Shown here: in pieces, positions 535-47,969 of the stretch
How positions within the stretch are numbered: the stretch's first letter is position 1
Layout of the letters: each line of letters starts with the position of its first letter
Assembly (NCBI GenBank): GCA_963844965.1
Contig: CAWJQC010000006.1
Span: 32,001-96,000 of the forward strand
Length of the DNA stretch: 64,000 nucleotides
Reading direction: 5' to 3'
DNA from: an uncultured bacterium
GTDB taxonomy: Bacteria > Patescibacteriota > Minisyncoccia > UBA6257 > 2-01-FULL-56-20
Notes under the pieces: model-generated
The model's input: the letters and a program-made list of their open reading frames with translations, nothing else
Told to the model about the DNA's origin: nothing
The model's database searches: none
Translations under genes and position numbers: made by a program

Positions 535-1110
535 TTTTTGTCAATCACCGCGGGCTAAAGCCCGCGGCTTGTGTTCGGCTCCTGTTCCCACTGGTTTCTG
601 ATATATTCTCTCATCGCTTTTTCGTTTTGACGGCCAACGGTTTCGGCAAAGTAACCATCCTGCCACAAGCTGTCTCCCCAGAGGAATTCTTCCAGCTCGG
701 GAAATTCTTTTCTGACAGCCCTGGACGTACCGCCTTTGAGATAAAACACCGCTTTGGCAACCGTCAGGGTAGCAGGAATTTGAAGCAATAGATGGACATG
801 GTCGGGCATTATCTGCGCTTCATGGATGAACCATTTATTCATCTTGGCGGCTTGAAAGAACAATGTCTTGAGTCGCCCGACCATGTCCCCTCGCAGTATC
901 GAGCGGCGGTACTTTGGGCAGAAAACAACGTGGTACAAACATCGCGTATAGCTGTGGTTGCTTGGCCAGAATCCAGAGGGCATTATCTTCATTATCGCAC
1001 CGGCAGAAACCAGTGGGAACAGGCAAATAAGCCCTCCGCCCCTCGCTTCGCTCGGGGCTACGGGGTCGCCTTATCCTCGGCCTAAAGGCCGGGGCTTGCG
1101 GCGGAGCGGG
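535..1110 (-). mobile_element. IS200/IS605-family element (TnpA only) with terminal hairpins
   Basis: Encodes a Y1 HUH transposase. A perfect hairpin 'ccgcgggctaaagcccgcgg' lies at 548-571 just beyond the tnpA stop, and palindromes 'cggcctaaaggccg' occur around 1075-1095. The boundaries are approximate. Confidence 0.55.
555..992 (-). CDS. tnpA: IS200-type transposase TnpA (HUH Y1 transposase, 145 aa)
   Basis: Typical IS200 TnpA size with the 'HVHLL' HuH motif and conserved Tyr region 'YHVVFCPKYRR'. Confidence 0.8.
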   Translation of the reverse strand: MKIMPSGFWPSNHSYTRCLYHVVFCPKYRRSILRGDMVGRLKTLFFQAAKMNKWFIHEAQIMPDHVHLLLQIPATLTVAKAVFYLKGGTSRAVRKEFPELEEFLWGDSLWQDGYFAETVGRQNEKAMREYIRNQWEQEPNTSRGL

Positions 1111-1299: not shown

Positions 1300-4200
1300 C
1301 TAATTCTGTACGGTCACCGTCAGATAATCCGACGCCTGGAAATTGCCGGCGGCATCATACGCCATAAGGTAAATAACGTGCGGACTATTGTCCTCTTTTG
1401 TCGTATCCCAGGAGAAACTATAAGGAGGCAACGTCTTGCTGTCTTTGAGCATCGCATCCACATAAAACTCAACTTTGGTAACTCCTACATTATCTGACGC
1501 ATTAGCAGATACTGTAACCACGCCCGACAGCGTGGAATTGTCGGCTGGACTCGTAACCGTTATCGTCGGCGGAATCGTGTCAAGCGGCGGGGGAGAAATA
1601 CTCACGTTGTTGGTCGGCGAAGTCCCGACGTTGCCGGCGGTATCGTAGGCCTTCGCGTAAAACGGATAAGGACCACCGCTCGGAAAGCCAGAGACGTTAA
1701 AGTTGGCGGCATAAGGGGACGAGGAAGCGAAAGAAATCAAAATGCCTTTGATGTAAAACCCCACCTTCGTCACGCCGCCATTCTTCATATAGTCCTCCTG
1801 CACCCAGCCGCTGGGACCGGAATCAAAATTAACATTCCACCACCAGGAAGCGTTGCTGTAAACCGGTCCGCCCACCACCGTCCCCTGCGCTCCGCCCATA
1901 TCCCACGCACTAGCGGTAAATTGAAGAGTATTGCTGTTCACCGTAGAGCCGTCTGCGGGAGAGGTCAGAGTAACCGTCGGCGGTACGGTATCCACGGTAT
2001 ACGTCTGCGTGCCGACGGGAGTTCCCGCAGCGCAGGTAGAAGGAGCTGACGTTACGGCAATGTTGGTAGCGCTGGACGTCAGTATCACCCGCTGGCCTAT
2101 TGTGAATTTTGTGGAAGGCGGCGGTGCAGTCGTCACGATGCTTACCGGCGTTGACGCGGACGAATTATTTCCGGCTGCGTCAAATGCGGAAACAGCATAA
2201 GTGTAACATGCCGAGCCGCTAACACTATTATCCGCATATGACGGGGTTGACGAAACGGTGGCGATAACAGAACCGTTGCGCATTATCTTATATCCAGCCA
2301 CGGCAATATTGTCGCTTGAAGGACTCCAGGTGAGATTGATCCGCGTCAACGAGACGACCTGGGCTACGAGACCGGTCGGCGTCGTGGGCGGAGTTCTGTC
2401 TATGCCGAACGTATTTGTCGTGGACGATGAGTTGTTGAATATATCGGTCGCTACCGCTTTAACGGTATGAATTCCCTCGGCGGTCCCGGAGGTATTCCAC
2501 GAATATGAATAAGGGGGCACTGTGGGGCTGGCGACAAGATTGCCATCAATGTAGATATCCACCTCTGAAACGGCGGTGTTGTCGGTTGCCGTCACGTAAA
2601 CGCTTGCCGTACCTCCCGGAATGAAAGAATTATTCTTCGGCGAGTTAATCACGACCGTCGGCGGAGTTGTATCCGCCGTCGGCAACGGCCCGTAATTGTA
2701 AAAACCGAGATCGTCAAACCAGGCGCTGCCGACGCCATCAGTGTCTTCGTCCGTAACAAGAAGGAAGCGCACGCTTTTCGCAGTCCAGGGAGCGGTAAAG
2801 TGATTGGAAAAATTGGTCCAACCTCCGCTACCCAGTATGCCGCCGACATAATCCACGCGCACTAGATTCCCCTGAGGATAAATCGAACTCATGGATGATA
2901 GAAGGGGGTAATAGGGCGTAGAACTTGAGGACCAAAGCAGGTAAATCCTCGCGCCAGAACCACCGACGCCACTTGCTTTTATCCATCCCGACGCCGTGTA
3001 GGAGGCTCCCGGAATTATATTCGTCACGTCTTGAGATACCATCTGCAGACCGGTACTCAGAACATCAATCTCTTCTGAGTGAGTTCCACCGTGGAAATCG
3101 GATGTCGTAACCGACCTGCCAGGAAAAGCCGAATCAGACCAAGCGGAACCGCCCAACTCAAAACCCGGGTCAATCAAAAGATTTTCGGAAATTCTCTCCA
3201 AGTAATTCTCGGCGACCCAACCTTCCGCTCCGGAGTCAAAACTTACCTCCCACCAGAAATAAGTGTCAGAATATTCTGAGCCGCCGATAACCGTCCCCAC
3301 AGAGCCCTCGGGTTCAACGGCAAGTGACGGCGCGAAAGTTGACGGCAGCGAACGGACATTCACCGAACTCATGGCCATGACGCGGTCGCCTATGGAAAAT
3401 TTGGTGCTCGGCGGAGGATTTTTCACGCCCACGATTACGGGCGGCGATGTGCCAAGATTATTAGAAGCGTCGTGGGCGATAGCGTTTAAAGTATGGCTAG
3501 CATTATTGGTAGCCAGATTCGTATCCCACAAAAACGTGTAGAACAAGCTTTTCACCGGCGAGCTCGTAACTGCCGGGCCGATGGCCGCGCCGTCAGCGAG
3601 AAGATTAATGTCCGCAACCGCGACGTTATCCGTGGCGCTCACGGACACTCTCGCAACGCCAGATACCGTCTGGCCGTTGAGCGGATAGGAAATGCGCGCG
3701 ACTGGCGGAGTTGTATCGGGATTATTGGTAGTCACGACAACGGGCAGGGAAGACGTCCCGTTTCCCGCGCCGTCATAAGCCACGGCAACAAGCGTATGGG
3801 TAGCATTCAATGTGCTTGAAGTATCCCAAACGAAAGAATATGGGAGTTGGGTGTCAGCACCCTTATACGTGCCGTCAACGTACAAGTAAACCCTGGCGAC
3901 GCCGACGTTGTCGGTGGCGTTAACTAAAACATTAAAAGTTCCCGATATGATCTCGCTGCTTGTGGGAGAAACTATGGAAACAACCGGCGGAGTCGTGTCC
4001 GGCGGCGGAACATATTTCTTCAGTGAATCTTCCGGACTCCAGCCGCTCGGGTCGGAATCATATTTTATGAACCACCAACCCTGGCCGTTCACGTAAACCG
4101 GACTGCTTGTTGATATAAAACCCAAAGTTCCCGAGGAATGCGTACCCAGCAGTTGTCCGAAAACCGACGGCCCCGAGCTTATTGTGCTCGACGGAGTGAT

Positions 4201-6153
4201 ATCCGCATAGACATTTGTGGTGGTTGTGGAAACCTGAACCCGGTCGCCGGCATTGAACTTTGAACTGTTGTTGATGTTAACGGTTACTGTCGGCGACGCG
4301 TAAGAATTTCCGGCGGAGTCATAGGCCTTTACGACAATGTCTTCTTTGCCATTAGCGAAGTTGAGCGTACTGATGGAGAACGAATAGGGCGGCGAATAAC
4401 CAACGAAATACACGCTTCCGCCCCAATAAAGCTCGACTCTGCTTATAGAGCCGCCGCCGGAAACTGTGGCTGTAATCGTTATGTCTCCCGAAACGGTCGC
4501 ACCATTAGTCGGCGAGGTGATATTTACGGTCGGTCCTCCGGTTACGGCGTTTGCCAAATAATTTTCTACGCTCCAGCCGGATGGACCGGAATCATAATTC
4601 ACATCCCACCACCAGTAGTTATCATAAAAATAGGAAATGCCGGTAATAGTTCCCTGCGCGCCGCTTGGCTGCGTACCCAATATGGTGCTCGATACCATCG
4701 GCAGAGTATGTATGTTCAAGTTGGCGGTGGTCTTGACGCGGTTACCGGCGGCGAATTTACTTGAAGAGGCGTTGAGCTCGCTCGCGGCAATTTTTATCAA
4801 GTAACCCTCGACGCTCCATCCCGAAACAGCGTCATCGTACGTCACTTGCCACCAATTATACGAGTTGGCATTAATGGGACCGCCGCTTACTATCCCCTGC
4901 GCTCCCGCGCTCTCCGTACCGACAATAGCGGCGGAAAGCGACTGACCAGCCCTGACGTTCAAATTCACCGTCGCTTGCACCTTATCGCCTATGGAAAATT
5001 TATCGGAAATAACAGCCTTGGCTAAACCCGACTCGTAGCACCACCCCGTAACCGCATCATTGAAAGTCACCTTCCACCAAATATAGCCATCGGCGGGCGT
5101 GGGACCACCGCTTATAGTGCCGCGCGCTCCCGCCTTTTCCGTCCCCACAGCCACGCCCACGGTCGTGGGAGTTGACAGAACACTCAAGTCCGAGTTTGTT
5201 TGCACAATGTCGCCCATTGAAAATTTATTGCTCGTGGTCGGCGCGATACTCACAAGATACTCCTCTATACTCCAGCCGCTTGTCGCATTATCGTCATACT
5301 TCACGTGCCACCAGACAAAACTGTCGGAACTCGTCGGGCCGCCGATAATACTGCCGAGAGAATTCGGCGCCTCTACCCAACCAATGGTGGATGAAAGCGA
5401 GGGGTCGGAACGAACATTCAGATTAGTTGTCGTCCGCACGCGGTCGCCCATTGAAAACGCCACGTAGGTACTCGTAGCCGTGACGGATTCCGTAATTTTC
5501 ACCAAATAATCCTCAACGCTCCACCCCGAGATGCCGTCATCATATATCACTTGCCACCAGGCATAGCCATCAGCGGCAACAGGGCCGCCCATAATGTGGC
5601 CGAGCGTCCCCGAAGCCTCAGACGTCACAATCGTGCCGGAAAGCGAAGGCGTTGAGCGCACATTCAAACTCTCCGTTGTTTGCACGCGATCGTTCTTTGA
5701 AAATTTCACGGAAACCGCCATTGTCGTCGCACTGACGGGCTCGGACCAAGCCGAGACATTTCCCGCGGAATCATAAGCGGCAATCACGTACGTGTACGTG
5801 GTGGCGGGCAGAAGACCTGTGTCAGCATACGTCGTTCCGACTATGCCACTTATGGGAGGAGGCGTACTGTCTCTCAGAATCGCGTAACCAGCCACTCCAA
5901 TATTGTCGGTTGCTGCATCCCAGCTGAGGTCAATTTCTGTGGTCGAAGCTTCCACTACCTTGAAATTAGTGGGGGTGGACGGCGGCGTAACATCTCTTGT
6001 GCTTGTGGCTTGCGCGTGCGCCGTGGCAAGAGAACAAAAAAGTGGGAATATGAAAAACAAAACAAAAACTCCGCACGTAAATAGCCGGAGGTTCTTTGCG
6101 CACCGCTTGTACGTCTTTAGAATAACCGCCGAGATAAAGAGAGTACTTGGCAT
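1300..6153 (-). CDS. Giant secreted or surface protein with FN3, bacterial SH3 and Ig-like repeats (1617 aa)
   Basis: N-terminal hydrophobic signal/anchor. FN3-like 'LSWDAATDNIGVAGY' modules are present. About seven repeats of 'NLNVRS.PSLS..I......G..G.I.GGP....GY.WW.V.YDDG.SGW' look like SH3b domains. Ig-like Big domains 'VSATDNVAV' are also present. Confidence 0.8.
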   Translation of the reverse strand: MPSTLFISAVILKTYKRCAKNLRLFTCGVFVLFFIFPLFCSLATAHAQATSTRDVTPPSTPTNFKVVEASTTEIDLSWDAATDNIGVAGYAILRDSTPPPISGIVGTTYADTGLLPATTYTYVIAAYDSAGNVSAWSEPVSATTMAVSVKFSKNDRVQTTESLNVRSTPSLSGTIVTSEASGTLGHIMGGPVAADGYAWWQVIYDDGISGWSVEDYLVKITESVTATSTYVAFSMGDRVRTTTNLNVRSDPSLSSTIGWVEAPNSLGSIIGGPTSSDSFVWWHVKYDDNATSGWSIEEYLVSIAPTTSNKFSMGDIVQTNSDLSVLSTPTTVGVAVGTEKAGARGTISGGPTPADGYIWWKVTFNDAVTGWCYESGLAKAVISDKFSIGDKVQATVNLNVRAGQSLSAAIVGTESAGAQGIVSGGPINANSYNWWQVTYDDAVSGWSVEGYLIKIAASELNASSSKFAAGNRVKTTANLNIHTLPMVSSTILGTQPSGAQGTITGISYFYDNYWWWDVNYDSGPSGWSVENYLANAVTGGPTVNITSPTNGATVSGDITITATVSGGGSISRVELYWGGSVYFVGYSPPYSFSISTLNFANGKEDIVVKAYDSAGNSYASPTVTVNINNSSKFNAGDRVQVSTTTTNVYADITPSSTISSGPSVFGQLLGTHSSGTLGFISTSSPVYVNGQGWWFIKYDSDPSGWSPEDSLKKYVPPPDTTPPVVSIVSPTSSEIISGTFNVLVNATDNVGVARVYLYVDGTYKGADTQLPYSFVWDTSSTLNATHTLVAVAYDGAGNGTSSLPVVVTTNNPDTTPPVARISYPLNGQTVSGVARVSVSATDNVAVADINLLADGAAIGPAVTSSPVKSLFYTFLWDTNLATNNASHTLNAIAHDASNNLGTSPPVIVGVKNPPPSTKFSIGDRVMAMSSVNVRSLPSTFAPSLAVEPEGSVGTVIGGSEYSDTYFWWEVSFDSGAEGWVAENYLERISENLLIDPGFELGGSAWSDSAFPGRSVTTSDFHGGTHSEEIDVLSTGLQMVSQDVTNIIPGASYTASGWIKASGVGGSGARIYLLWSSSSTPYYPLLSSMSSIYPQGNLVRVDYVGGILGSGGWTNFSNHFTAPWTAKSVRFLLVTDEDTDGVGSAWFDDLGFYNYGPLPTADTTPPTVVINSPKNNSFIPGGTASVYVTATDNTAVSEVDIYIDGNLVASPTVPPYSYSWNTSGTAEGIHTVKAVATDIFNNSSSTTNTFGIDRTPPTTPTGLVAQVVSLTRINLTWSPSSDNIAVAGYKIMRNGSVIATVSSTPSYADNSVSGSACYTYAVSAFDAAGNNSSASTPVSIVTTAPPPSTKFTIGQRVILTSSATNIAVTSAPSTCAAGTPVGTQTYTVDTVPPTVTLTSPADGSTVNSNTLQFTASAWDMGGAQGTVVGGPVYSNASWWWNVNFDSGPSGWVQEDYMKNGGVTKVGFYIKGILISFASSSPYAANFNVSGFPSGGPYPFYAKAYDTAGNVGTSPTNNVSISPPPLDTIPPTITVTSPADNSTLSGVVTVSANASDNVGVTKVEFYVDAMLKDSKTLPPYSFSWDTTKEDNSPHVIYLMAYDAAGNFQASDYLTVTVQN

Positions 6154-19329: not shown

Positions 19330-20432
19330 ATGGTTCAAGCCGCCGCTCCAAAAAAATCCAAAGAAGGTACGCCGCAAAGTAAAGAAGAAAATCAAAAGCA
19401 GCTAGATAATCTTCTCTCTTCGCTCCAGGAAAAATACGGCGAAGGAGCGATTATGAAATTGGGCGAAGCGCGCAAAGTTGACGTGGCGGTCGTGCCAACC
19501 GGCTCGTTTTCGCTGGATATGGCGCTTGGCGTCGGCGGCTTGCCTCGCGGGAGAATTATTGAAATCTTCGGGCCGGAGATGAGCGGGAAAACCACACTCG
19601 CCTTGAATGTCGTCGCGCAGGCGCAAAAACAAGGCGGTAAAGCGGCTTTCATTGACGCCGAGCATGCCCTGGACCCGGAATATGCCGCTAAGCTCGGCGT
19701 GAAAGTCAATGAACTTTTGATATCGCAACCCGACAACGGCGAAGAAGCGCTGAATATTCTGGAAAGCCTGGTCAGGTCGGAGATGATTTCCGTTGTTGTC
19801 GTGGACTCCGTCGCCGCGCTCACGCCAAAAGCGGAACTTGAAGGAGAGATGGGCGAACAACATGTCGGGCGGCAGGCAAGGATGATGGGCCAAGCCATCA
19901 GAAAGCTGACAGCAATCGCCGCGAAGACGCAAACGATGGTGATTTTTATAAACCAGCTGAGGATGAAAATAGGGATAATGTTCGGCAATCCCGAAACGAC
20001 GCCGGGGGGGATGGCCTTGAAGTTCGCCGCCTCCGTCCGCATTGACGTCCGCCGCATGGCCCAGGTCAAAAAAGGAGAAGAGGTTGTCGGCAACCGCGTC
20101 AAGGCAAAAGTCGTTAAAAACAAAGTCGCGCCGCCGTTCAAGCTCGCGGAGTTTGACATTATGTTCAGCGAAGGAATTTCCTATGAAGCCGATGTGCTGA
20201 ACGCCGGGATAAGATACGGAGTCATCAAAAAATCCGGCGCGAGTTACGGCTTTTCCGCCCAAGGCGGATCCGCCTCTGGCGGAGAGACGATAAAATTGGG
20301 CACGGCTTTGATAATGTCCGCCTGAAGCTGAAAGAGGACAAGAAATTACTGAACGAGATCAAAAAGAAAGTGACGGAGACAGCGAAAACAGGAGTGATAG
20401 CGGCGAAGAGCGAAAAGGGAGAGGAAGAATAA
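19330..20432 (+). CDS. recA: RecA recombinase carrying a 30 bp palindromic in-frame insertion plus a frame change near its C-terminus
   Basis: Walker A '[10 protein letters not shown]' and the L2-region motif '[25 protein letters not shown]' are present. After 'KKSGASYGF' comes the insert '[10 protein letters not shown]'. The acidic C-terminus '[29 protein letters not shown]...EKGEEE*' is then in another frame, ending at 20430-20432. Confidence 0.85.
20254..20283. repeat. Coding-palindrome element copy E1 (in recA)
   Basis: tccgcccaaggcggatccgcctctggcgga, with 13 bp inverted ends 'tccgcc.a.ggcg' and 'cgcct.tggcgga'. It contains GGATCC. Confidence 0.8.
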
Positions 20433-20517
20433 CGCAACCGATAGAAAACAAAAAGAGGCGCAAAAGCGCCTCTTTAGTTTTTATATATCCAGTTCATAAA
20501 TTCTGGCGAAATCGGAA

Positions 20518-20784
20518 CTAATGCAAAAAGTGGTACGGGTATGCATCAGTGGCCGACGTCGGTTTCCTAACCGGCCTCGGATAATAATGTCCGAAGTACC
20601 AACCACCGCGATAGCGATATGTACGAACGTGGTCGTCAGGATGCGCACGCTTGAATGCAATCATCGCCGTAACCGCTTCGGTTTGCGTTTTGTATCGTTC
20701 TTTTCCGTCACATGCGTTTCTTCTAAGCCTGCGCTTGCTGGCCACAACCCCCTCCTTCCTTAGAGAATCAACGTACCGCGACAC
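20518..20784 (-). CDS. Hypothetical small basic protein (88 aa)
   Basis: ORF only. Confidence 0.35.
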   Translation of the reverse strand: MSRYVDSLRKEGVVASKRRLRRNACDGKERYKTQTEAVTAMIAFKRAHPDDHVRTYRYRGGWYFGHYYPRPVRKPTSATDAYPYHFLH

Positions 20785-20834
20785 GCTGGCCTTATCCTAA
20801 ACCACTCTTCCAAAATTAGCAACAGGAGCAAATT

Positions 20835-21909
20835 TTAAAGCCGCGCTATCGCCTGCTTCAGCCCGTCAAGCGAAGTGCTCATCATCAAGTATCCCTGATA
20901 CCAGCCGTAGACAAACGTTGCGCCCGGCTGCGAAAACGCAAGCGCTCGGAAAGACGAATTCGCCGCAGTGACATCTTGAAATCCCACAGCCGAAGGGTCG
21001 CCGGGAGAAACCAAAAAGAAATTTTCAATTTTGGTCGTCATTGCTTCAAGTTTCGCCACGTTGTCCTTAAGAAACAGCCAATTTTCCGCCGGCTTCAATT
21101 TCAAAACATACCCAGGCCAAATGCCGTTCGCGTCTTTGTAGGCAAAAACTGTGGCGTCGGGGTTAAAATGCGCGAGAACATACTGTGGGTCAAGAACGGC
21201 GGTATCCGCGGCGGAAAAAATATCGTTCACGTAGGCATCGGTGCCATCGGCTTTCTTCGCGTCAATTTCAAAAAATGTGGACGTGGGGCGGGCTCCGGCA
21301 AAGATACCCGAGAAGCGCTGCGGGAACGTCTGCAGATCCGAAGCGTTCTGCGCGGCGCTACTCAAAGTCAATGTTAGCGTCTGATCAACCGGCTTGCTGA
21401 ACAAAGTGGCGTGCGTGAAACTTGCGCCGACCGGCTGAGGATTGGTATATTGCTGTGTTTGACCTTGCGTCGCAGCCGGAGCCGACGTTCCGGAAACATT
21501 TCCACCGCCAAAGAATATGCTGTAAGCCAAATATATGATGGCCGCGAGAACTATAAGCGCTACAACGGCCACAAAAACAACGGGCCAGAAACATTTTGGG
21601 TCTTACCTCGCTTTCTTTGTTTTCCGGCGCGCGCTCTTTCTTCGCGACTGCCGCGGCTACATCCCCGCCGCCAAGCGCCGCGAATCTTTCCTCAAGCTGG
21701 TTGACCTCTTTGGACGGCTCTTCCTCACTGGCTATCTCGTCATAAGCCGGCAATTTCGGAGCTTTGACGCTTTTAAATTCCGGCCCTCCCCCAGGGCGAG
21801 ACATCGCCTCAAGATCGCTTTGCATCGTCCGCACCTTTACATCCGGCGGCGGAGGCGGAGCCGAAGGAATTTCGGCTATTCCCAAATTTTCGTTTGAAGT
21901 ATCGGCCAT
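20835..21909 (-). CDS. Hypothetical membrane-anchored protein (N-terminal cytoplasmic region, TM helix, extracellular domain), frameshifted near 21575-21595
   Basis: ORFs 21385..21909 and 20835..21572 overlap. The TM helix 'WPVVFVAVVALIVLAAIIYLAYSIFF' reads through from the upstream frame after an A-run. Confidence 0.5.
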
Positions 21910-22003
21910 TGCAATTTAATTTTAGCACGAAAGAACCACGCAAAAAAATAGTCGGCTCCCGAGAAGCCGACTAAATCCTCAATCTCCAGAAATAAACAGG
22001 GGG

Positions 22004-22867
22004 TCACGCAGCTATGGGATACTCAATTTCCTTAGGCAGCAACCCGACCAAAGCCAAGTCGGACCTAATCTCCCCGATAATATCATCATCGGGACGGCCG
22101 TCATTTACCACAACGGCTTTCTTCAACAGGGCATCCTCTTGACCGGGGAAAATCCTAATTGACCGATTAAAAATTTTGGCGGCCCAAACTGACGATTTGA
22201 CCTGGTAAATTATTCTTCCGACAGATTCGCCAGCTTCCCTCTTGACGCTCCATTTCAAACTAACATCTTCGCCATAGTGGTCGCTGATATCGATCTTGCC
22301 TTTCTTTGGACGATGCCTGCCGGAACGCACGCACTCCATCCACAAAACACCGGGCAGAAGTTCCTTAATTGAAGCAAGAAGCCGCTCCGCCAAACGATGA
22401 AATCTCTCCTCGTTGCGGTCGCCTTTCTCGTTCGCCTTGCGCAAACGCCTTAATACGCCCTTCTTACGAATACGAACCCTTGGAGTGTGAAGAATGTTCC
22501 GATTAGCAGAATGACCATAAGAACTCGGCCTATCTGGTGGCGGCGGCGCAACGACTTTTTCTGGTTCGGTTTGAGGCGGCGATGGTTCGACTCGCAGAGA
22601 TTCCTTTTTTACATCTGCGTTTGGTTTGACGACCATCACGCCGACCAGAACACCCCTCGCGTTGTATCTGCACTGAACTTTTCCGCTTTGTTCCAATACC
22701 CTGATGATAAACGCAGAGCGCCGTCTGCCGGTATTAATCGGCCAACCAAAATTATCGAGAAGCATATCACTCAGGCACTTGAGCGGATTTTTCAAATATT
22801 CGCCGGCATGCGCACTCAAATAAACTAAAACCGCGGCTCGTTCTTTATCCGGAATCGCATACAGCAC
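22004..22867 (-). CDS. Hypothetical protein (287 aa)
   Basis: ORF only. Confidence 0.5.
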   Translation of the reverse strand: MLYAIPDKERAAVLVYLSAHAGEYLKNPLKCLSDMLLDNFGWPINTGRRRSAFIIRVLEQSGKVQCRYNARGVLVGVMVVKPNADVKKESLRVEPSPPQTEPEKVVAPPPPDRPSSYGHSANRNILHTPRVRIRKKGVLRRLRKANEKGDRNEERFHRLAERLLASIKELLPGVLWMECVRSGRHRPKKGKIDISDHYGEDVSLKWSVKREAGESVGRIIYQVKSSVWAAKIFNRSIRIFPGQEDALLKKAVVVNDGRPDDDIIGEIRSDLALVGLLPKEIEYPIAA

Positions 22868-22962
22868 ACGACACCTCCGAAACTATAAGCTACCGACATC
22901 TTATCATAAACTAACTACTGCGTCAAGCCGGCTGGCTGGGCTAGACCGTGCCGTGCCAACCA

Positions 22963-25135
22963 CTATTGCAATTGTTTTATGGACAGCCCGATTCTGCCGT
23001 CTTCGTCGGCACGTATTATCTTTGCGCGGACGAAATCGCCCACCTTAACTACTTCGGTGACAGTTTTAACATAGCCGTTTTTAAGTTCGGAAACGTGGAT
23101 CATCCCGTCGCGACCGCCGCCCAAATCCACTATCGCGCCGAAATCCAGGGTTTTTATAACCGTTCCCTCAATGATGTCGCCGATCTTATATTCTTTGGTA
23201 AGCGCCGTGATTTCCGCGACCGCCGCGTCCGCCTTCGCGACATCCGGCCCGAGACGAACACGCCGCCGTCTTCCTCCACGTCAATACTCGTAAGCCCGTA
23301 TTTCGCGATCAAACCGTTGATCATCTTGCCGCCGGGACCGATAAGCGCGCCGATCTTCGACGGATCGATCTTAAGCTGGCGGATTATCGGGACGTACTTT
23401 GACAACTGCGGCCGCGGCTTGGCGATAACGGATCATCATGTATTTCAAGAATCTCAAGCCGCGCTTTCTTCGCCTGCTCAAGCGCTCTTTCCAGCATTTC
23501 GTGCGTCAAACCGTCAACTTTCACGTCCATCTGCAAGGCGTTCACGCCGTCTTCCGTACCAGCAGCCTTCAGATCCATGTCACCGTGATGGTCTTCCGGA
23601 CCCTGGATGTCGGTCAAAATCTTATATATATCCTTTCCGCCAAAGGCGGATCCGCCTTTGGCGGACATCATTAGCCCCATTGCCGTGCCCGCCGCCGGTT
23701 TTTTTATCGGCACACCAGCGTCCATAAGCGACAGAATGGAAGCGCAAACGGTCGCCATTGACGACGAACCGTTTGAGGACAAAATTTCGGAAACAACGCG
23801 GATCGTGTATGGAAATTCTTCTTTAGGAGGTATAAGGGGCTCAATTGCTTTACGCGCCAAATTGCCGTGGCCGATCTCTCTCCTGCCCGGACCGCGGAAA
23901 GCGCCGATTTCTCCGACCGAATATGGCGGGAAATTGTAATGCAGCATAAAACGCCGCTTGCCGGTCATTTCCATCGTCTCTATGAACTGCTCCTGCCCCG
24001 GAGGAGCGAGTGTCGTTATCCCCAAAGCATGCGTGTTTCCCCGCATGAATAAGGCCGACCCGTGCGTGCGCGGGAAAAGCCCGACTTCGGCGTTAAGTGC
24101 GCGTACTTCATCAAGCCGCCTGCCGTCGGGACGCTTTTCTTTTTCCAAAATATTCTTGTGGACAAGTTCGTTTATCGCTTCCTCAAATAAATAGTCCGCG
24201 TCCTTGAGGATGTGTTCTTCTCCGCCAAAGGCGAATCCCTGCCCGCCGGCAGGCGTGGCGCCTCTGGCGGAAAAATGCTCTTTGACATGCGCGCGCAATT
24301 CCTCGCGCAGTTTCCCAGTGGCGCCCGAAAATTCAACCTTGGTCTGTCTGTATACCGCTTCCTCAAGTTTGTCCGATAAGAATTTTTTAACCATAACCTT
24401 CAGCGGTTCGTCAAATTCGTGCAATATAAGCCCCTCTTTGGGCTTGCCGATCTCCTTTATTATCTTTTTCTGGAATTCTATCAGCTTGTCGTTCTCTTTC
24501 TGCGCCAGCGCGAACGCCGCGAGTATGTCTTTTTCGCCTGCCTCGTCGCCGCCAAGTTCTATCATGTTTATCCTTCCCAAAGAACCGGCGAGGAAGGCAT
24601 CAAACTTCGGTTTCGTTTCTTTTATTTCCGAATTTGTCGGATTGATGGCGAACCTGTCGCCGAACTGCGCCACGCGGACGCCGGCGACGGGACCTCCCCA
24701 GGGAATGTCGGAAATACCGAGCGCGGTTGAAGCGCCCGCGAGTCCCACGAATTCCGGGTCGTTCTCTTCGTCGTAAGCGAGAACGGTCACGACCACCTGG
24801 ATTTCGCGCCTGATGCGCTGGTCAAAAAGCGGGCGGATCGTTCTGTCAACCGTCCGTCCCGCCAAAATCGCGTCTTCTGACGGCCGTGATTCGCGGCGTA
24901 TGAAACGGCTGCCGATTATTTTTCCGGCGGCGTAAAATCTTTCCTCATAATCCACGCGGAGCGGCATATAATCCGCGTCAATGTCCTCTTTGGACATTAC
25001 AACGGTCGTGAGCACCGCCGTCTCGCCGTACTGTGCCAAAACAGCCGCGTTCGCTTGTTCGGCAATCGGCGAAATTTCAAGCGTCAAAGTTTTACCACCG
25101 ACATCGGTGGTGAATTTTTTGCGTGGTATTGGCAT
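22963..25135 (-). CDS. pnp: Polynucleotide phosphorylase (PNPase), split by two frameshifts and carrying two palindromic in-frame inserts
   Basis: The RNase PH core (ORF 23384..25135) has 'SSNGSSSMATVCASILSLMDAGVPI' and 'GPEDHHGDMDLKAAG'. The KH domain 'KIGALIGPGGKMING' is in ORF 23154..23405. The S1 domain '...IGDIIEGTVIKTLDFGAIVDLGGGRDGMIHVSEL...' lies in a third frame and ends at 22963. Shifts occur at about 23407-23416 (gcggccgc) and about 23245-23252 (ccggccc). Confidence 0.85.
23636..23665. repeat. Coding-palindrome element copy E2 (in pnp), a perfect 30 bp palindrome
   Basis: tccgccaaaggcggatccgcctttggcgga equals its own reverse complement and encodes SAKGGSAFGG in the pnp frame. E. 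coli PNPase has no counterpart at this position (...GLVKEGDNYVV...). Confidence 0.85.
24221..24271. repeat. Coding-palindrome element copy E3 (in pnp), 51 bp variant
   Basis: tccgccaaaggcg-aatccctgcccgccggcaggcgtg-gcgcctctggcgga. It has the same 13 bp inverted ends and encodes '...SARGATPAGGQGFAFGGE...' in frame. Confidence 0.7.
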
Positions 25136-27129: not shown

Positions 27130-27235
27130 TGTGCCGCGGGAGAGATTCGAACTCTCATAGTCTTACGACTGCTGGCTCATACTCGCCCCGTACCGAGCTT
27201 TGCTCCGGTGCGGGGAAGCCAGTGCGCCACGCACT
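27130..27235 (-). other. tRNA-like fragment (canonical T-arm GAGAG-TTCGAAT-CTCTC, no complete cloverleaf)
   Basis: The minus strand has a perfect T-arm followed by 'CCGCGGCA', but I could not find a matching 5' acceptor strand. Confidence 0.3.
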
Positions 27236-27245
27236 AAATTTTGCC

Positions 27246-27329
27246 GGTGCCGAGGGTGGGATTCGGACCCACAACCCTTTCGGGACAGCGTCCTAAGCGC
27301 TGCGCGTATTCCATTTCCGCCACCTCGGC
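27246..27329 (-). tRNA. tRNA-Leu (anticodon TAG), long variable arm
   Basis: Acceptor GCCGAGG/CCTCGGC. Anticodon stem CAGCG/CGCTG with loop CTTAGGA. Variable arm about 16 nt. T-arm GTGGG-TCCGAAT-CCCAC. Discriminator A followed by CC. Confidence 0.7.
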
Positions 27330-27639
27330 AAAATTTAGTGCGGTGTTCCGCCACCGCGACATTTGCGCGGGGATGAACCTGCCTACCAGCAAGCAGGCCC
27401 GCCAACCTGCCCGCACCGCTCCCATCACTGTTTATCTTAAATCCCGCCATCGTTTTATTCAACAACACGGCAGAATTCCGCAACGCCCATAAAAATGCCG
27501 GTGAGATAAAGCTCCATGGGCTTACCTGCGCTTCGCCGAGGCTGCGGCAAGGCGAGCGCCCGTGGTATCTGGAAGCTTTACCCCGCCCCGACCGCGGTCG
27601 GGGCGGGGTATTCAGCGGGGATTTAATATAAAAAACCAA

Positions 27640-27681
27640 AAGCCCCCTCCGGCGCAAGGCCGAAGGGGGCTTTTTTCTTTT
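27640..27681. terminator. Rho-independent terminator hairpin at the end of the pilin cluster
   Basis: aaaagccccctccggcgcaaggccgaagggggctttttt. Confidence 0.6.
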
Positions 27682-27706
27682 CTGATTTAATCTCTAAATC
27701 AGAAAT

Positions 27707-27892
27707 TTAGCAGCCGGTGAACGAAGCGCCGAGGAAGCTGCCGATGATCAGAGGAACGCCCTTCGCGAGAACGGCGATGACCACGGCGACTACGGCGTAG
27801 ATAAGCGTGCTCGAAGCGCCCTTAACCTTCTCCGGATCGCCAGAGGCAGTCAAATACTTGTAGGCGGCGACGAGTATGAAAACAATCGCCAA
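27707..27892 (-). CDS. T4SS-pilin-like (TrbC/VirB2-like) small protein A (61 aa)
   Basis: Two hydrophobic helices flank 'AAYKYLTASGDPEKVKGASSTLIYAVVAVVIAVLAKGVP'. The family-level resemblance to PF18895-type pilins is inference. Confidence 0.6.
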   Translation of the reverse strand: MAIVFILVAAYKYLTASGDPEKVKGASSTLIYAVVAVVIAVLAKGVPLIIGSFLGASFTGC

Positions 27893-28131
27893 AACGACGA
27901 GAAGCGTGAAAAGCCAGTTGACGGCGGTGCAGATAAGCGCGATAAATCCGGTTAAGCTCGTAACGGTCGTCGGCGCTGTCTGTTGGGTCCCGCCACAAAA
28001 GGCAGGGTCAACCCCAAAACCAGCGATTTTATTGACTTCATGTTAAGAATTCGGTATTGACCGGAATAATGTTTTTTTTCGACCTTTCTCCTTATATAAA
28101 AAGCATAGCACAAACCATGCAACACTACAAC

Positions 28132-28518
28132 CTAAGGACATAACGCTACCGCTGCCGAGTTCGCACCAAAGATATTAAGAACAATCAGCGGTACGGATTT
28201 CGCAAGCAATGCCACCACCAAGCCAACCACGGCGTAGGTAAGCATCTTCGTGGCTTCGCTTACTTTGGTCGGGTCGCCGGAAGAGGTCATATACTTATAC
28301 GCCGCGACAAGCACCAAAAGTATGACCAATGCCATGAGAATGTACCACATCCAGAAAGCAACCTCGCAAATCACATTGTCAATAAGCTGATCTGGAGTGC
28401 TATATGTCGGTACGGGAATTACCGATTGTGCGAAAACCTTATTCGCAGAAAGGAGCAGCAACTGGGATAGAAGCAGAACACCATACCGATATTTCACGGC
28501 TGAAAATAAATTTTTCAT
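28132..28518 (-). CDS. T4SS-pilin-like protein B (128 aa, signal peptide)
   Basis: 'LVAAYKYMTSSGDPTKVSEATKMLTYAVVGLVVALLAKSVPLIV' is paralogous to A. Confidence 0.65.
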   Translation of the reverse strand: MKNLFSAVKYRYGVLLLSQLLLLSANKVFAQSVIPVPTYSTPDQLIDNVICEVAFWMWYILMALVILLVLVAAYKYMTSSGDPTKVSEATKMLTYAVVGLVVALLAKSVPLIVLNIFGANSAAVALCP

Positions 28519-28644
28519 ACAATATTTTTTAACTTTATAACCGGCTGAAACGCTTATTTTCGGCCTTTTACGTTGTCTTTATCATACCACAAACTCCGAG
28601 AATTGCACTGGGGATAAAGGTGCTGCTTAACCTACCGCACCACC

Positions 28645-28992
28645 TCAACAGCCTCCACTGACGCTACTGGCACCGACTATACTGGCGACTATTGACGGGA
28701 CGGACTTCGCGAGAATTGCCACAATGATGCCTGCAGCGGCATAAGCAAGCGTCTTATGCGCCGAACTCACTCTTTCTGCGTTATCGCCGCCGGTAACATA
28801 GAGAAACCCGGCGTAAATTATCATAATCACGGAAAGCGCCATCAGAATGTAAAACATGGCAACGGCGATCGGGCAGAGAATTTTACTGGTAATATCCGAA
28901 ACGCCGCCGCTGAAAGTTATGCCGGAAACGTCGGCATAAGCGCCGCTTACGCCAAAAAGTTTCAGGAAACCGAGAATCAAAACCGGCGACAT
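28645..28992 (-). CDS. T4SS-pilin-like protein C (115 aa)
   Basis: 'YAGFLYVTGGDNAERVSSAHKTLAYAAAGIIVAILAKSVPSIV'. Confidence 0.65.
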   Translation of the reverse strand: MSPVLILGFLKLFGVSGAYADVSGITFSGGVSDITSKILCPIAVAMFYILMALSVIMIIYAGFLYVTGGDNAERVSSAHKTLAYAAAGIIVAILAKSVPSIVASIVGASSVSGGC

Positions 28993-29092
28993 TATGGTCC
29001 TCGTTTTCGGCGAGTTTCACAATGTAATTAACTATTTTCATAGTCCTTTCCTGCCTATTAATTTTAACACACCGGGCAAGTTATAAAACTAT

Positions 29093-30819
29093 TCACCCCC
29101 CGACCCCGAAAATCGCCTGGATAAGGCTGACCACGCCTTTCGCCGCGAGAACCGCCACAAAACCGATGGCCGCGTAAAGAATCGTGTTCCTGCCGTTCTT
29201 GAACTTTTCCGGATTGCCGCCGGCGGTTATTATCTGGAATCCGCCGTAAAGAACCATAATGGCGACTATGGGAACGGCTATCGTGATCAAAAGGTCAATG
29301 ATCTTATTGGCACAATCCGTGATGGTTGAGCACGCGCCCTGGAGAGGATTGGTAAGCGAGCCGCTGAGAGTCACGTTGCTGCCGGGTGATTGACCACTTG
29401 GCGACTGACCGCTGGGTGATTGACCGCTTGGCGACTGACCGCTGGGTGATTGACCGCCAGGCGTGCTCGCAGTCCATTGGCAAGCACCATTACCACCGAA
29501 AGCGCCAACACACGCACTCTGGGTCGTATAAAGCGTGCAGTTGGCGGACTGACAGTTCGCGCCAGTAGTATCTTGGGTACAAGTACCTCCGCTACACGCA
29601 GCAGTGCATGAAGCGACAGTATAAGAACAGCCACCAGTGCTGCAGTAATATGGCGTCACGGCGCTACACGTGCCGCCGCTGGTGCCAGCAGGCGATGTTG
29701 TAACACATTCACCGGTAGTAGTATTGCAGTAGGGGGCGTTACTGTATGCAGCGGCGCACTGACTGTTGCTGCTACACCCAACGCATGCATTATTAACGCA
29801 GATGGGCTGGGTCTCGACCGTGCATTTGGTGCTATCAGTGCCACAGCCGCTCGGCGCGGTCGTAACACATTCACCGGTAGTAGTATCGCAGTAGGGAGCA
29901 TTACTATATGCAGCGGCGCACTGACTATTACTGCTACATGCAGAGCATATATTATTGACGCAGATAGGTGCCGTCTCGCTCGTACAAATACACTACTATC
30001 ACCACTGCAACTGGTCGGCGAGGTTGTGACACATTCACCGGTATTAGTATTGCAGTAAGGAGCATTACTATATGCAGCGGCGCACTGACTATTACTGCTA
30101 CACCCAACGCACGTGCCACTAGAGCCACAGATGGGCTGGGTCTCGCTCGTGCATTGACTGCTATCGGTGCAGCTACCGCCGCCGCTGCATTGATTGGTGC
30201 TCGGCAAGCCGGGCGCCAGACAGCCCGAAGAACCATACCAGCCGCATCCCGCACTACAGCAGGTAGGTTGATCAATGCAATTACTGCAACTGGATAAGTT
30301 ACACGAACTGCCGCCGGTGCTCGCATTGCATACTTGCCCGCCGGCGCAACCACTATCGGAGCTGCAGGAGTTGCCAACGCCGCTACTATTGGCGTTATTT
30401 GACAGACAACTGCCAATCTGGGGGGATGCCACCGCGCAAGTGCAACCGACCCCAGTATAACAATTTCCCGCCGGCGAAGCGGAAGCGCAACTGCAAGTAA
30501 CCCCATCAGAATTAGTATTGCATACCTGGCCACCAGCGCAGCCGGAGTCGGTCGTGCAGTTTCCGCCGCCGTTGGATGGGTTGCAAGACACGGAACAATT
30601 ACTATCGGAGTAAGCGTTGGTTCCACAGCCTGCTGGATCTAAACAATTACCGGCCAGACAGTCATCGTTCGTCATGCAACTCGAACCGCAGGCTTCATAG
30701 AACGTACTGGGACAGGCCTGCGCGTGACTTACAGATGGTCGGCCAAAACCGAAAATAAAAGCGGCGATGACCACAAAAGCGAAAATCAGAAGCCGCTTCT
30801 TCATAATTTTATTATACAT
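29093..30819 (-). CDS. Cysteine-rich tandem-repeat secreted protein fused to a C-terminal T4SS-pilin-like domain (frame breaks inside the repeats)
   Basis: The N-terminal ORF (29656..30819) has a signal peptide and repeated 'S/TDSGCAGGQVCN' Cys modules, then runs out of frame through three ~130 bp DNA repeats. ORF 29093..29659 overlaps it by ATGA. It contains (GQSPS)x5 and ends 'LYGGFQIITAGGNPEKFKNGRNTILYAAIGFVAVLAAKGVVSLI'. Confidence 0.6.
29390..29462. repeat. 15-nt tandem repeat x5 encoding (GQSPS)n
   Basis: ccgctgggtgattga / ccgcttggcgactga units. Confidence 0.75.
29686..30110. repeat. Three tandem ~130 bp repeats inside the Cys-rich gene
   Basis: '...cattcaccggtagtagtattgcagtagggngcnttactntatgcagcggcgcactgact(a/g)tt(a/g)ctgctaca...' recurs three times with indels. 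Confidence 0.7.
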
Positions 30820-30828
30820 TATTTGGCG

Positions 30829-31347
30829 CTATTCGGGCAGAAACTTAGACCATAGTCCTTGCCAGACAGAGCTTTCGTTAACGAAAGCTGGCACCGTCAG
30901 GGCGACTTTCAATAGGCAGGCCTGCGGCTGCGTAATACCCAGGGCGCTGAGAAAATCAGATTCCGCCCGACTGCGCACTTCGTTGAAAGGATTGTTAAGT
31001 ATAGTGATGAGGAAGCTGCTGTCAGCAGGAAAGTAAAGAATGTGGTAATCTCCGGTGCTTCTGAACAAAACATAATCACCCGCTTCTACTCTCACGGCAT
31101 TTTTATAGGGATTTTTTACTTCCACGCTGCCGTTGGGCGTACCGATGGTAATCGTATCTCCCTCGGGGACGGGGATTGGCGGCGGAGGAGGCGTTGGTGA
31201 CGTGGGCGGGGAAATCGGCGGCAAGCCGCCGGGACCGGTACTTCCGGCAGGAGAGGTCTTGTTCCTGACAACCAAAACGACAACTACTCCGACGACTAGC
31301 ACAAGAAAAATTACCGCTATAATAATTATTCTTCTCGTTTTTAACAT
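30829..31347 (-). CDS. Membrane-anchored protein with a Pro-rich linker (172 aa)
   Basis: N-terminal TM helix 'IIIIAVIFLVLVVGVVVVLVV', then 'PISPPTSPTPPPPPIPVPEG'. Confidence 0.5.
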   Translation of the reverse strand: MLKTRRIIIIAVIFLVLVVGVVVVLVVRNKTSPAGSTGPGGLPPISPPTSPTPPPPPIPVPEGDTITIGTPNGSVEVKNPYKNAVRVEAGDYVLFRSTGDYHILYFPADSSFLITILNNPFNEVRSRAESDFLSALGITQPQACLLKVALTVPAFVNESSVWQGLWSKFLPE

Positions 31348-32366
31348 GATAACTTATGAGGACTTGGCGGGGTGAAATTGCATGTGCAGTTCACACTCCA
31401 GTTATCCCATGCCCGGGAATTGGCGGCAAGGGGACAAGCAGCGTTAATATTCGGGCTCGATTTTGTGGCGTCGGTGACACACTTTTTATACAGTGATGTA
31501 TTTACAACCTGACAATGGTAAACATGGTTTGTGCTGTCCCACTGAGCTGCGTGGTTAAAGGCGCTGGGACAGCCATCGCCGTTCACGTCATTTACGGTCA
31601 GGTTGATTTGGAACAGTCCCCACGAGAAAACACTGTTATCTTCCGCGCACTTATCCGACGTGCTCGGCGCCGTAGGATCGCCGCCACTTTCCTTGCTGGC
31701 AATGGAGGAAGCGTCATACGGACCATTACCGATACCGCCGAAACACGAACTGTTGAGGTTGTCTTGTGAAGCATCGCCGCTTGTAAGTGGCGCGCAATTT
31801 CCACTTGAATTGTTGCACGGACTGCCCGGATCGCAACTGCCCGGATAGCAATTTGAGGTTCCTCCGGCATTACTTTGACAATCTGCCTGGCTTGAGTAAT
31901 TAGCTACACACATATTTCCGGCGGCTGATACCTGACACAGTTGGTAAGATGTAGAGCCTCCGCTCGCCGTCGGCGCCGCCACCTGTACCGAAACACCAGG
32001 GAGCAGTAAATTCCAATTTGTCAGATTAGGATTGATGATGTTTAAAATCGTATAAGCTCCGACAAGGAGCAGGAGTCCGACTAATGCACCTTTCACCCAC
32101 TCTTTTCCTTCTGTTTGGCCAGTGGGGTTTCCGGCTGCCAGCGTGTATTTTATCCCGCCATAGACGATAGCTCCGAACGCCAGAATGCCGGCAAGCATCA
32201 TGGCAAATCTATAAAGATAGTCAACGAAGTTCCCCAGGCCGGAGCTGCCAGAAGGTTGACCGGGCAGATTTGTGTAGATAGTGACCTGCGCCCGCGCCAC
32301 CGCGGCGTAAAATAAACAGAAGGAAGCAAAGACCAGTGGACGTAATTTTTTAAACAAGGTTTTCAT
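31341..32366 (-). CDS. T4SS-pilin-like N-terminal domain fused to a Cys-rich lytic-transglycosylase-like (VirB1/SLT-like) domain (341 aa)
   Basis: Pilin-like 'FGAIVYGGIKYTLAAGNPTGQTEGKEWVKGALVGLLLLVGAY'. The C-terminal 'SKESGGDP...SVFSWGLFQIN' matches the SLT catalytic E-S ... GLxQ(I) pattern, with many Cys. Confidence 0.55.
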   Translation of the reverse strand: MKTLFKKLRPLVFASFCLFYAAVARAQVTIYTNLPGQPSGSSGLGNFVDYLYRFAMMLAGILAFGAIVYGGIKYTLAAGNPTGQTEGKEWVKGALVGLLLLVGAYTILNIINPNLTNWNLLLPGVSVQVAAPTASGGSTSYQLCQVSAAGNMCVANYSSQADCQSNAGGTSNCYPGSCDPGSPCNNSSGNCAPLTSGDASQDNLNSSCFGGIGNGPYDASSIASKESGGDPTAPSTSDKCAEDNSVFSWGLFQINLTVNDVNGDGCPSAFNHAAQWDSTNHVYHCQVVNTSLYKKCVTDATKSSPNINAACPLAANSRAWDNWSVNCTCNFTPPSPHKLSC

Positions 32367-47186: not shown

Positions 47187-47969
47187 TTAAGCCGCAATCT
47201 TCTCGGCAAACACGGACGGCGGCATCTTGAGGGCGGAGTGGATCCGCGTGTGGTTGTACTGCCACAAGGTGCTGTAGATCTCCGCCACGAGCTCGCCGAA
47301 GGTCCCGAACCGGTTGGGATCACCGAGGTCAATCTTGAACTTGTCATAGAACGATTCCTGGTAGCCGTTTTCCCATGGGGCACCGGGCCGCGACCGCGAG
47401 ATCGTGATGCCACAGTCCCCCAGTGTATCGGTGAACGCTCGTGCCTTGTACTCGCTGCCGTTGTCCGAATGGAAGATGACCGGATGCGGATGGTGGAAAA
47501 GCGCGTTGGCCAGGGTCTGTATCGTGAGGGGCGATCCTTTCCGCAACGCCACATGGACGCCCATCAATCGTCTCGTGAAAAGATCGAGTATCGTGGACAC
47601 GTACACTTTCTTGCCGCGATACAGGAACTCCGTGAAATCGGTTGCCCAGACGTGGTTCGCGTACGAGGGCATGATGGCAAGTAAGAGGTTCGGAAAGGCC
47701 CGCGATGCCTTTGATTTCCGGTATTTCCTGCCTCGCCTCCGGTACGGCCTTATGCCGAAGATTCGCATGACGCGCTGCGCTCGCGGACGGCTCACGCCCA
47801 GAGCTTGTCCCAAGCGCCGGGAACCGTATGCCGGATGGCGCTGCAATTCTTCTTCCATGCGGATCTTGAGCGCCCAATCTTTCTTGTCCTGCCGTGATAC
47901 GTAGTAGAGCGATGCCCGCGAGACGCCCATGGCCCGCGCCATGGCGGACTTGTTCCGCTTTTCCGTCAA
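47187..47969 (-). CDS. IS3 transposase OrfB (rve integrase core, DDE)
   Basis: 'HSDNGSEY' integrase-core motif. It has a TTG start and is normally made as an OrfAB fusion. Confidence 0.8.
   Translation of the reverse strand: MTEKRNKSAMARAMGVSRASLYYVSRQDKKDWALKIRMEEELQRHPAYGSRRLGQALGVSRPRAQRVMRIFGIRPYRRRGRKYRKSKASRAFPNLLLAIMPSYANHVWATDFTEFLYRGKKVYVSTILDLFTRRLMGVHVALRKGSPLTIQTLANALFHHPHPVIFHSDNGSEYKARAFTDTLGDCGITISRSRPGAPWENGYQESFYDKFKIDLGDPNRFGTFGELVAEIYSTLWQYNHTRIHSALKMPPSVFAEKIAA

Follow-up and report, generated by a model that had tools for sequence, protein, structure and literature searches.

A 30-nucleotide double-hairpin element residing in frame in recA and pnp of an uncultured Patescibacteriota bacterium, and its occurrence across bacterial phyla

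Among the closest described counterparts of the element reported here are the Rickettsia palindromic elements (RPEs), which are characterised, in the summary of Ogata et al. 2000 given in PMC10969869, as repeats of ~100-150 bp that are confined to Rickettsia. According to the same recent review they are palindromic, are located both in intergenic regions and in frame within unrelated housekeeping genes, and encode a peptide compatible with the fold of the host protein, while in-frame selfish DNA outside Rickettsia is described there only as "conceivable". In this study we describe an element, referred to as E, of which three copies (E1, E2 and E3) are found in a 64,000-nucleotide stretch of an uncultured Patescibacteriota genome (assembly GCA_963844965.1, contig CAWJQC010000006.1, positions 32,001 to 96,000), hereafter the window. 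One copy is located in recA and two in pnp. An original prediction made from the letters of the window alone had likened these copies to RPEs of far shorter length, and at 30 or 51 bp against the ~100-150 bp summarised for RPEs this comparison stands. E shares with RPEs the palindromic character and the in-frame insertion into unrelated genes, but it is 30 or 51 nt long, is assembled from hairpin modules of 15 and 21 nt and occurs in many phyla, and is thus set apart by the size and host given in that description. E therefore appears similar to RPEs but far smaller and far more widespread.

Repetitive extragenic palindromic (REP) sequences and their doublets, the REPINs, which are mobilised by REP-associated tyrosine transposases (RAYTs), are reported as GC-rich imperfect palindromes of 20-40 nt in which the doublet is the propagating unit (PMC3116915, PMC3733652). 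They are also reported as extragenic and as carrying a GTAG or CGTC tag (PMC3733652). E is likewise a short doublet of GC-rich imperfect palindromes with a maintained hairpin and with no capacity to encode a transposase. However, ~45% of the E copies among the matches listed are inside open reading frames (ORFs), the element starts with TCCG and has tTt flanks in place of a GTAG or CGTC tag, no cognate RAYT flanked by E was found in the window, where the sole Y1 gene is of the IS200 type, and E crosses phyla whereas REP families are lineage-specific. E thus seems RPE-like in its in-frame residence and REPIN-like in its doublet build, and it fails defining features of both.

[quoted passage not shown] A census of 2024 gave a median element of 104 bp (PMC11602168), and on this scale a 30-nt element would probably have been missed. 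Elements derived from IS200/IS605 also have hairpins at their ends and make no target duplication, but the hairpins of two IS200 copies are unlike E, and the target bias of E is symmetrical rather than one-sided. Palindromic amphipathic repeat coding elements (PARCELs) are coding DNA with dyad symmetry that occurs sporadically among distant microbes; they differ in being 25-residue tandem repeats that form whole membrane-protein ORFs rather than single short inserts in housekeeping genes. Very small dispersed repeats were reportedly described in cyanobacteria by Elhai et al. in 2008. Such small cyanobacterial repeats, together with the GC clusters and double-hairpin elements of mitochondria, are a few tens of bases long, often form hairpins, show nesting and are seldom found in coding sequence. 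Their hosts are cyanobacteria and organelles, and their sequences differ from E. To our knowledge none of them is shared across bacterial phyla or built in codon-multiple modules. Searches of the literature by sequence, peptide and topic returned no description of E and yielded only cloning primers and linkers.

The three copies were confirmed in the window at the positions originally predicted (Table 1), together with their 13-nt termini, which E3 shares with the ends of E1 and E2. E2 was also verified as a perfect palindrome with GGATCC at its centre, and E3 consists of the arms of E enclosing a central CCTGCC...GGCAGG hairpin. The presence of these copies is far beyond chance. With at most one mismatch allowed, five occurrences of the 15-nt unit TCCGCCNNNGGCGGA were counted in the window, against 0.38 expected and with none of 100 shuffles matching this count, and the 30-mer occurs twice with at most three mismatches, against 0.00 expected. 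All three lengths are divisible by three and one common frame of the element is translated in all copies; the ORFs and their translations therefore agree with the predicted in-frame residence in recA (once) and pnp (twice). Homologues of PNPase and RecA assign the host to the Patescibacteria, in the vicinity of Paceibacteria/Liptonbacteria.

Table 1. Positions of the E copies, their host genes and mobile-element genes in the window
Feature	Position	Strand	Description
E1	20254-20283	+	30-nt double-hairpin element in recA; TCCGCCCAAGGCGGATCCGCCTCTGGCGGA; 10-residue insert
E2	23636-23665	-	30-nt perfect palindrome (two hairpins) in pnp; TCCGCCAAAGGCGGATCCGCCTTTGGCGGA; encodes SAKGGSAFGG
E3	24221-24271	-	51-nt three-hairpin variant in pnp; encodes SARGATPAGGQGFAFGG
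recA	19330-20432	+	host gene; assigned from ORF, translation and RecA homologues
pnp (polynucleotide phosphorylase)	22963-25135	-	host gene; assigned from ORF, translation and PNPase homologues
IS200/IS605-family Y1 transposase	555-992	-	145 aa; Pfam Y1_Tnp E = 9e-39; NCBIfam transpos_IS200 130.8 bits
rve-type DDE transposase	47187-47969	-	adjoins the serine recombinase
Large serine recombinase	48530-50041	+	adjoins the rve-type DDE transposase

Comparison with orthologues shows that the inserts have exact boundaries. The closest PNPase relatives (80-83% identical) are without both pnp inserts. At the E2 site, locus L121 reads ATGATG^AAAGAT where the window reads ATGATG-(30 nt)-AAGGAT, and at the E3 site it reads AATTTT^GATGAG where the window reads CATTTT-(51 nt)-GAAGAA. 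Similarly, the closest recA, that of L124 (92% identical protein), reads TCGTTT^GAGAAC at the E1 site where the window has GGCTTT-(30 nt)-GAGACG. The extra residues that had been predicted in RecA and PNPase are thus borne out as exact absences of 30, 30 and 51 nt in close relatives. For a GH57 enzyme of Omnitrophota, most of 120 orthologues read NINKAF-KNKDIL whereas a few read NINKAF-SAKGGSASGG-KNKDIL, the flanks being unchanged between empty and filled forms, so a clean presence/absence pattern is also found outside the candidate phyla radiation (CPR). No target-site duplication was observed in the four empty/filled comparisons, two in pnp and one each in recA and GH57. Nested and decayed copies both exist; at the E2 site of the L122 pnp, for example, a 60-nt nested variant has a second E placed inside the first, after GGATC.

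We scanned one genome for each of 185,579 species with TCCGCCNNNGGCGGATCCGCCNNNGGCGGA, which has 24 fixed bases. At least 126 exact copies in at least 120 loci were recovered, where the chance expectation was estimated at well below one, and these further copies, a search for which had been proposed with the prediction, are both genic and intergenic. Among the matches listed, all 120 loci are from metagenome-assembled genomes (MAGs) and, as judged from record titles, ~70 of the 120 belong to Patescibacteria of many classes. Other titles name Omnitrophota (~10), Kiritimatiellae, Verrucomicrobiota, Lentisphaerae, Planctomycetes, Ignavibacteria, Chloroflexota and 'Gammaproteobacteria'. Of the 126 copies listed, 57 fall in open frames that extend for 40 codons or more to either side. 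Among the host proteins are DnaG, a class II aminoacyl-tRNA synthetase, PheT, UvrB, an amylase, DnaE, HsdR and ArsA, and also RpoC, RpoB, an E2 acyltransferase, a solute-binding protein, GH57, PolX, a Mur ligase and Mfd. No E was found in 5,426 E. coli genomes. A phage or plasmid vector for E was considered and rejected, as only 2 matches were found in 2.9 million viral contigs and none in the PLSDB plasmids.

The distribution also bears on the origin of the copies in the window. An artefact of assembly, sequencing or cloning, be it a BamHI-site linker, a chimeric join or a long-read error, might be suspected from the resemblance of E to a synthetic GGATCC linker, which brings primer-like matches, and from the gene-breaking 1-nt indels present in the window. 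However, contigs from MEGAHIT, SPAdes, JGI, Logan and long reads all contain E in frame, some at shared sites and others at different ones, its loops vary, diverged and nested copies exist and its boundaries against orthologues are clean. Because E is present in independent assemblies from different assemblers and samples, we reject the engineered linker-like artefact that had been offered as an alternative and assign this explanation a negligible probability. As for the indels, recA is broken by a 1-nt deletion at ~20305 (GGCAC-GGC), downstream of E1, where the missing base is seen in the alignment with L122 and L124, and pnp is broken by 1-nt indels at ~23449, ~23435 and ~23251. An identical recA frameshift is present in L125, an independent Logan contig (run ERR10755942). 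These indels lie near but outside E1-E3, which are unaffected, and they may be systematic sequencing errors or real frameshifts.

The flanks of the element were found to follow a pattern. From 246 half-sites (123 copies) among the matches listed, a half-site consensus of t-T-t^TCCGCC R R A GGCGGA was obtained, with T at position -2 in 81% of the half-sites (88% for intergenic copies and 85% for coding copies). Since the T/A flank bias is equally strong in intergenic copies, it is not a protein effect. The T at -2 is already present in 6 of 6 half-sites of the three empty sites and is therefore a target preference rather than a part of the element. The insertion point is the centre of nTn^nAn, with TTT^AAA, cut in the middle, as the preferred target. 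The most frequent neighbouring residues in coding copies are phenylalanine before the insert, in 18 of 39 copies listed, and lysine after it, in 22 of 39.

In-frame insertion into unrelated genes, which is a trait of RPEs, is also observed for E. The SAxGGSAxGG frame is used by 49 of the 57 coding copies among the matches listed under a looser classification, and a stricter one gave 39 copies in this frame, 3 in other frames and 20 that are clearly intergenic. E contains no stop codon in any frame, and loops with TGA were observed in intergenic copies only (among the matches listed). The target adds to the frame bias because TTTAAA is allowed in only two of three codon phases, the third containing the stop TAA. 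This limit is insufficient for a ratio of 39 to 3, so that the Pro- and Arg-rich frames have probably been selected against as well.

Some intergenic copies were observed within or beside other repeats. At L005 (4569-4752 and 6390-6572), a Kiritimatiellae MAG, and also at L002 and L050, E lies inside an intergenic repeat of ~185 nt which also contains a palindromic sequence of the type GTCATTCCGAGCGTAGAAGAGGAATC..., and a decayed E follows at ~4770-4815. At L120 (6170-6291 and 7163-7284), L075, L074 and L114, intergenic copies occupy the loop of CCCCCTTT...AAGGGGG hairpins, and the uninterrupted host hairpin ATCCCCCTTTACCAAAGGGGGCG was found close by. This arrangement looks like a nested insertion at a TTT^ position. 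Short tandem repeats of 7-8 nt, with examples such as AAATCTT, AAGATTG, AAAGTC and CTACAGC, are located on both sides of E at L036, L059, L060, L061, L102, L118 and L003.

E consists of two tandem 15-nt stem-loops (TCCGCC-RRA-GGCGGA), and its arms of 13-15 nt are inverted repeats. The third loop position is A in 94% of half-sites among the matches listed even though it is a synonymous site. The two loops within one copy are mostly non-complementary, and perfect palindromes form 24 of the 123 copies listed. We noticed that in diverged copies the changes are paired inside each 15-nt unit, as in TCAGCC...GGCTGA, CTCGCC...GGCGAG and CCCTCC...GGAGGG. When these were counted under a two-hairpin model, 16 double-change cells were observed against 4.2 +/- 1.6 in shuffles, none of 500 shuffles having as many. 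A single long hairpin or cruciform gave 4 such cells against 3.4 in shuffles (209 of 500) and was rejected on this count and on the small number of perfect palindromes. Compensatory changes thus back two hairpins and not one long palindrome. The initial description of the family as palindromes holds for E2, whereas covariation favours tandem 15-nt hairpins for the element in general and E3 belongs to a separate three-hairpin subfamily. In predictions for single-stranded DNA, E1 folds into two hairpins (-12.5 kcal/mol), E2 into one long hairpin (-16.9 kcal/mol) and E3 into nested hairpins (-20.4 kcal/mol). An RNA family already described was ruled out as the identity of E, as Rfam gave no family match at the three sites and only sub-threshold terminator-like matches after recA.

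The 51-nt form was observed to recur. A metagenome scan with a partial pattern, the left arm of E followed by the CCTGCC...GGCAGG hairpin, gave at least 120 matches. Among the matches listed there are 26 unique elements with both arms exact, and every one of them is exactly 51 nt long, with the consensus TCCGCC-RRA-GGCGGATC-CCTGCC-CGTCC-GGCAGG-CGGG-CGCC-TYY-GGCGGA or its reverse complement. The T/A flanks are those of the 30-nt form, and the recA of L130 has the 51-nt form at the E1 site. E3 is thus a member of a recurrent 51-nt three-hairpin subfamily rather than a one-off. With a basic unit of 15 nt and an added hairpin module of 21 nt, every size class consists of whole codons.

The recA alleles permit a comparison of DNA and protein conservation. 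Five other lineages have almost identical DNA inserted at the E1 site, and across the six alleles, whose lineages are 70-90% identical in protein, the few differences within E preserve the hairpins (T16C with A30G in L122; GCC>TCC with GGC>GGA in L131). Where the amino acid is conserved, codon identity is 86% in E and 41% over the remainder of recA (Fisher p = 4e-18, for compared pairs that are not independent), in agreement with the claim that this is a DNA element rather than a peptide motif. The same peptide encoded by divergent, non-palindromic DNA, which had been named as the refuting outcome, was looked for in recA orthologues and the opposite was found. A flexible Gly/Ser/Ala loop, SAxGGSAxGG, selected for protein function with the DNA likeness as a secondary effect would be compatible with the location of the inserts in loops and beta-turns and with the enrichment of Lys, Glu, Arg and Ser among the loop codons of coding copies. 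Against such a selected peptide, however, stand the kept synonymous positions, the compensatory changes at the DNA level, the occurrence of the same 30 nt in intergenic regions, in the other two frames and in unrelated proteins, and a flank bias that is identical outside genes. This explanation is largely refuted already and we consider it very improbable.

The peptides of E1-E3 are extra residues relative to most orthologues and to the solved structures of PNPase and RecA. E2 lies directly upstream of TDIQGxEDxxGDMD, and the alignment to PNPase structure 5xex has a gap at this position, which supports the prediction that E2 is additional in PNPase. E3 is located earlier than E2 in the same alignment, in a variable and gapped stretch. 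E1 follows the ...AWYSY strand of the RecA C-terminal domain in alignments to solved structures. In the AlphaFold model of P0154, an intact filled RecA (mean predicted local distance difference test score 70.7), the equivalent insert, residues 305-314, lies between strands 301-305 and 316-321, as anticipated for a loop, and the E1 peptide is accordingly predicted to occupy a beta-hairpin loop of the C-terminal domain.

Other inserts were noticed at the two pnp sites. The pnp of L124, the closest relative (3333-5537, minus strand), carries a different insert of ~36 residues (TQTNAERTQTDADKIPRESALSSPRLSSGEAGQRKSAPVRF) exactly at the E2 loop, and this is related to versions in P0006 and P0011. 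It was rejected as a copy of E, and it does not recur among the fetched loci. The E2 loop of pnp seems to be a hotspot at which inserts of several kinds are found. At the E3 site many PNPase orthologues have 3-5 extra residues (for example SAAG, GATK, LAEGA) exactly in place, and the DNA of L122 at this site, CTTGCCGAAGGCGCT, is similar to the left arm of E; such short extras may have been left behind by elements that decayed. Small genes with T4SS_pilin domains are clustered near rpsO-NYN-pnp-recA, both in the window (27163-32366) and in the neighbourhoods of L121 and L122.

We consider E to be, probably, a non-autonomous mobile hairpin element that is tolerated in translation. In the mechanism we propose, E would be a miniature element of GC-rich stem-loop modules, in which two 15-nt units give the 30-nt form and an additional 21-nt hairpin gives the 51-nt form. 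New copies would enter a short AT palindrome at its centre, with no duplication of the target, for which TTT^AAA would be the optimum and nTn^nAn the minimum. Because the element is quasi-palindromic and free of stops, Ser-Ala-x-Gly-Gly is read twice in either orientation, and copies landing in frame in surface loops would therefore be tolerated and persist in essential genes. This tolerance would suit gene-dense genomes that are short of intergenic space. The retention of the hairpins through compensatory changes suggests that a folded single strand of DNA, or possibly RNA, matters for propagation or maintenance. The proposal that these are RPE-like selfish miniature elements is thus upheld for the in-frame residence, the conservation at the DNA level and the clean insertions, while its selfish and mobile part, including any active transposition and the enzyme responsible, is inferred from the distribution.

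Several observations weigh against mobility of this kind. All filled recA alleles have the flank E-[V/T/A]-I-K instead of x-x-E-K, and filled pnp alleles share the flank K-D-[I/T]-Y. These shared flanks seem to fit a filled allele spread by recombination, or an old constrained insertion, better than new insertions occurring again and again. Neither a transposition event nor polymorphism within a population was seen in the comparative data, and no autonomous parent, with E termini enclosing longer ORF-bearing DNA, was found in 0.95 Mb of E-bearing loci. Horizontal transfer is also a difficult explanation for the identical stems across phyla, since E is almost absent from phage contigs and plasmids.

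Alternatively, the insertions could be old and mostly static, be kept by selection on a nucleic-acid hairpin, acting for example as a translation-slowing or stability structure in mRNA or as a DNA structure, and spread between lineages solely with filled alleles by homologous recombination after DNA uptake, with no dedicated transposition machinery today. The flank changes of filled recA and pnp alleles, which are never seen in empty alleles, would fit this, as would the near-consensus state of E, with hairpin-preserving changes only, in lineages with saturated synonymous sites. The E-bearing loci showed no linkage to a transposase, and they carry T4SS-pilin-type genes from which a capacity for DNA uptake might be supposed. 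Such old insertions do not explain why E occupies more than 100 different sites across phyla, both within unrelated genes and between genes, nor do they explain the nested copies or the conserved target of the TTT^AAA type. Furthermore, the GH57 insertion of Omnitrophota is clean with unchanged flanks, no function of the hairpin is known and Rfam holds no match. We therefore regard a purely static origin as improbable, though it deserves clearly more weight than a selected peptide. When 120 RecA sequences were placed in a tree, filled alleles were scattered over no fewer than 6 separate places, each beside empty relatives, and such a scatter calls for gain or loss on repeated occasions or for lateral transfer. 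The shared flanks suggest that filled alleles recombining between lineages account for some or all of the spread at a given site, or else that the flank adapts after insertion, and homologous recombination probably also carries filled alleles laterally, alongside mobility. With more than 100 unrelated sites that have a common target motif, a mechanism of insertion is still needed.

A candidate for the mobilising enzyme is a single-strand, hairpin-recognising transposase of the HUH/Y1 type acting in trans. Enzymes of the IS200/IS605 class act on single-strand hairpins and make no target duplication. The Y1 transposase of the window scores as IS200-type, reaching 38.6 bits with the RAYT model, below the cut-off of 80, and its flanks (~540-570 and ~1070-1095) contain GC-rich hairpins with TTTA loops, CGGCCTTTAGGCCG and CCGCGGGCTTTAGCCCGCGG, which are unlike E. 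Physical linkage of E to Y1 transposases was also sought by tblastn with the TnpA of the window, which found one other copy (L066) with unrelated hairpins. As further points against the proposed mobility, Y1 genes number only 2 in ~0.95 Mb of E-bearing DNA and have end hairpins of their own that are unlike E, E is too short for the arrangement of guide and cleavage sites in canonical IS200/IS605 ends as known from IS608, and a two-sided palindromic target points to double-strand dimeric recognition rather than to the one-sided target of Y1 enzymes. In view of the differing hairpins, the single further Y1 gene in E loci and the symmetrical target, the assignment to this enzyme class is doubtful. 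The rve-type DDE transposase and the serine recombinase of the window, which may form another mobile element or an integrated island, were considered as movers of E and set aside, as DDE enzymes of the rve type make target duplications and E has none.

At somewhat less than even confidence, we suggest that E, together with its 51-nt relative, could represent the smallest translation-adapted mobile elements known so far. They would consist of stop-free, codon-multiple hairpin modules that cross phyla, give one and the same benign peptide in either orientation and insert without duplication into TTT^AAA-like sites, and they would be a general supply of loop insertions to the essential proteins of uncultivated bacteria with gene-dense genomes. 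In-frame selfish DNA has so far been treated as a curiosity of Rickettsia, and here the same 30 nt are found in RNA polymerase, DNA polymerase, RecA, PNPase and tRNA synthetases of many uncultivated phyla. E also indicates that mobile DNA of an entire size class would be overlooked by standard repeat and MITE finders, and it raises the question of which enzyme could insert a double hairpin of 30 nt and leave the target unduplicated. In addition, E would account for some of the odd Gly/Ser-rich loops that complicate protein alignments and phylogenies of the CPR, and its sites amount to a natural list of the loops of essential enzymes in which insertions are tolerated.

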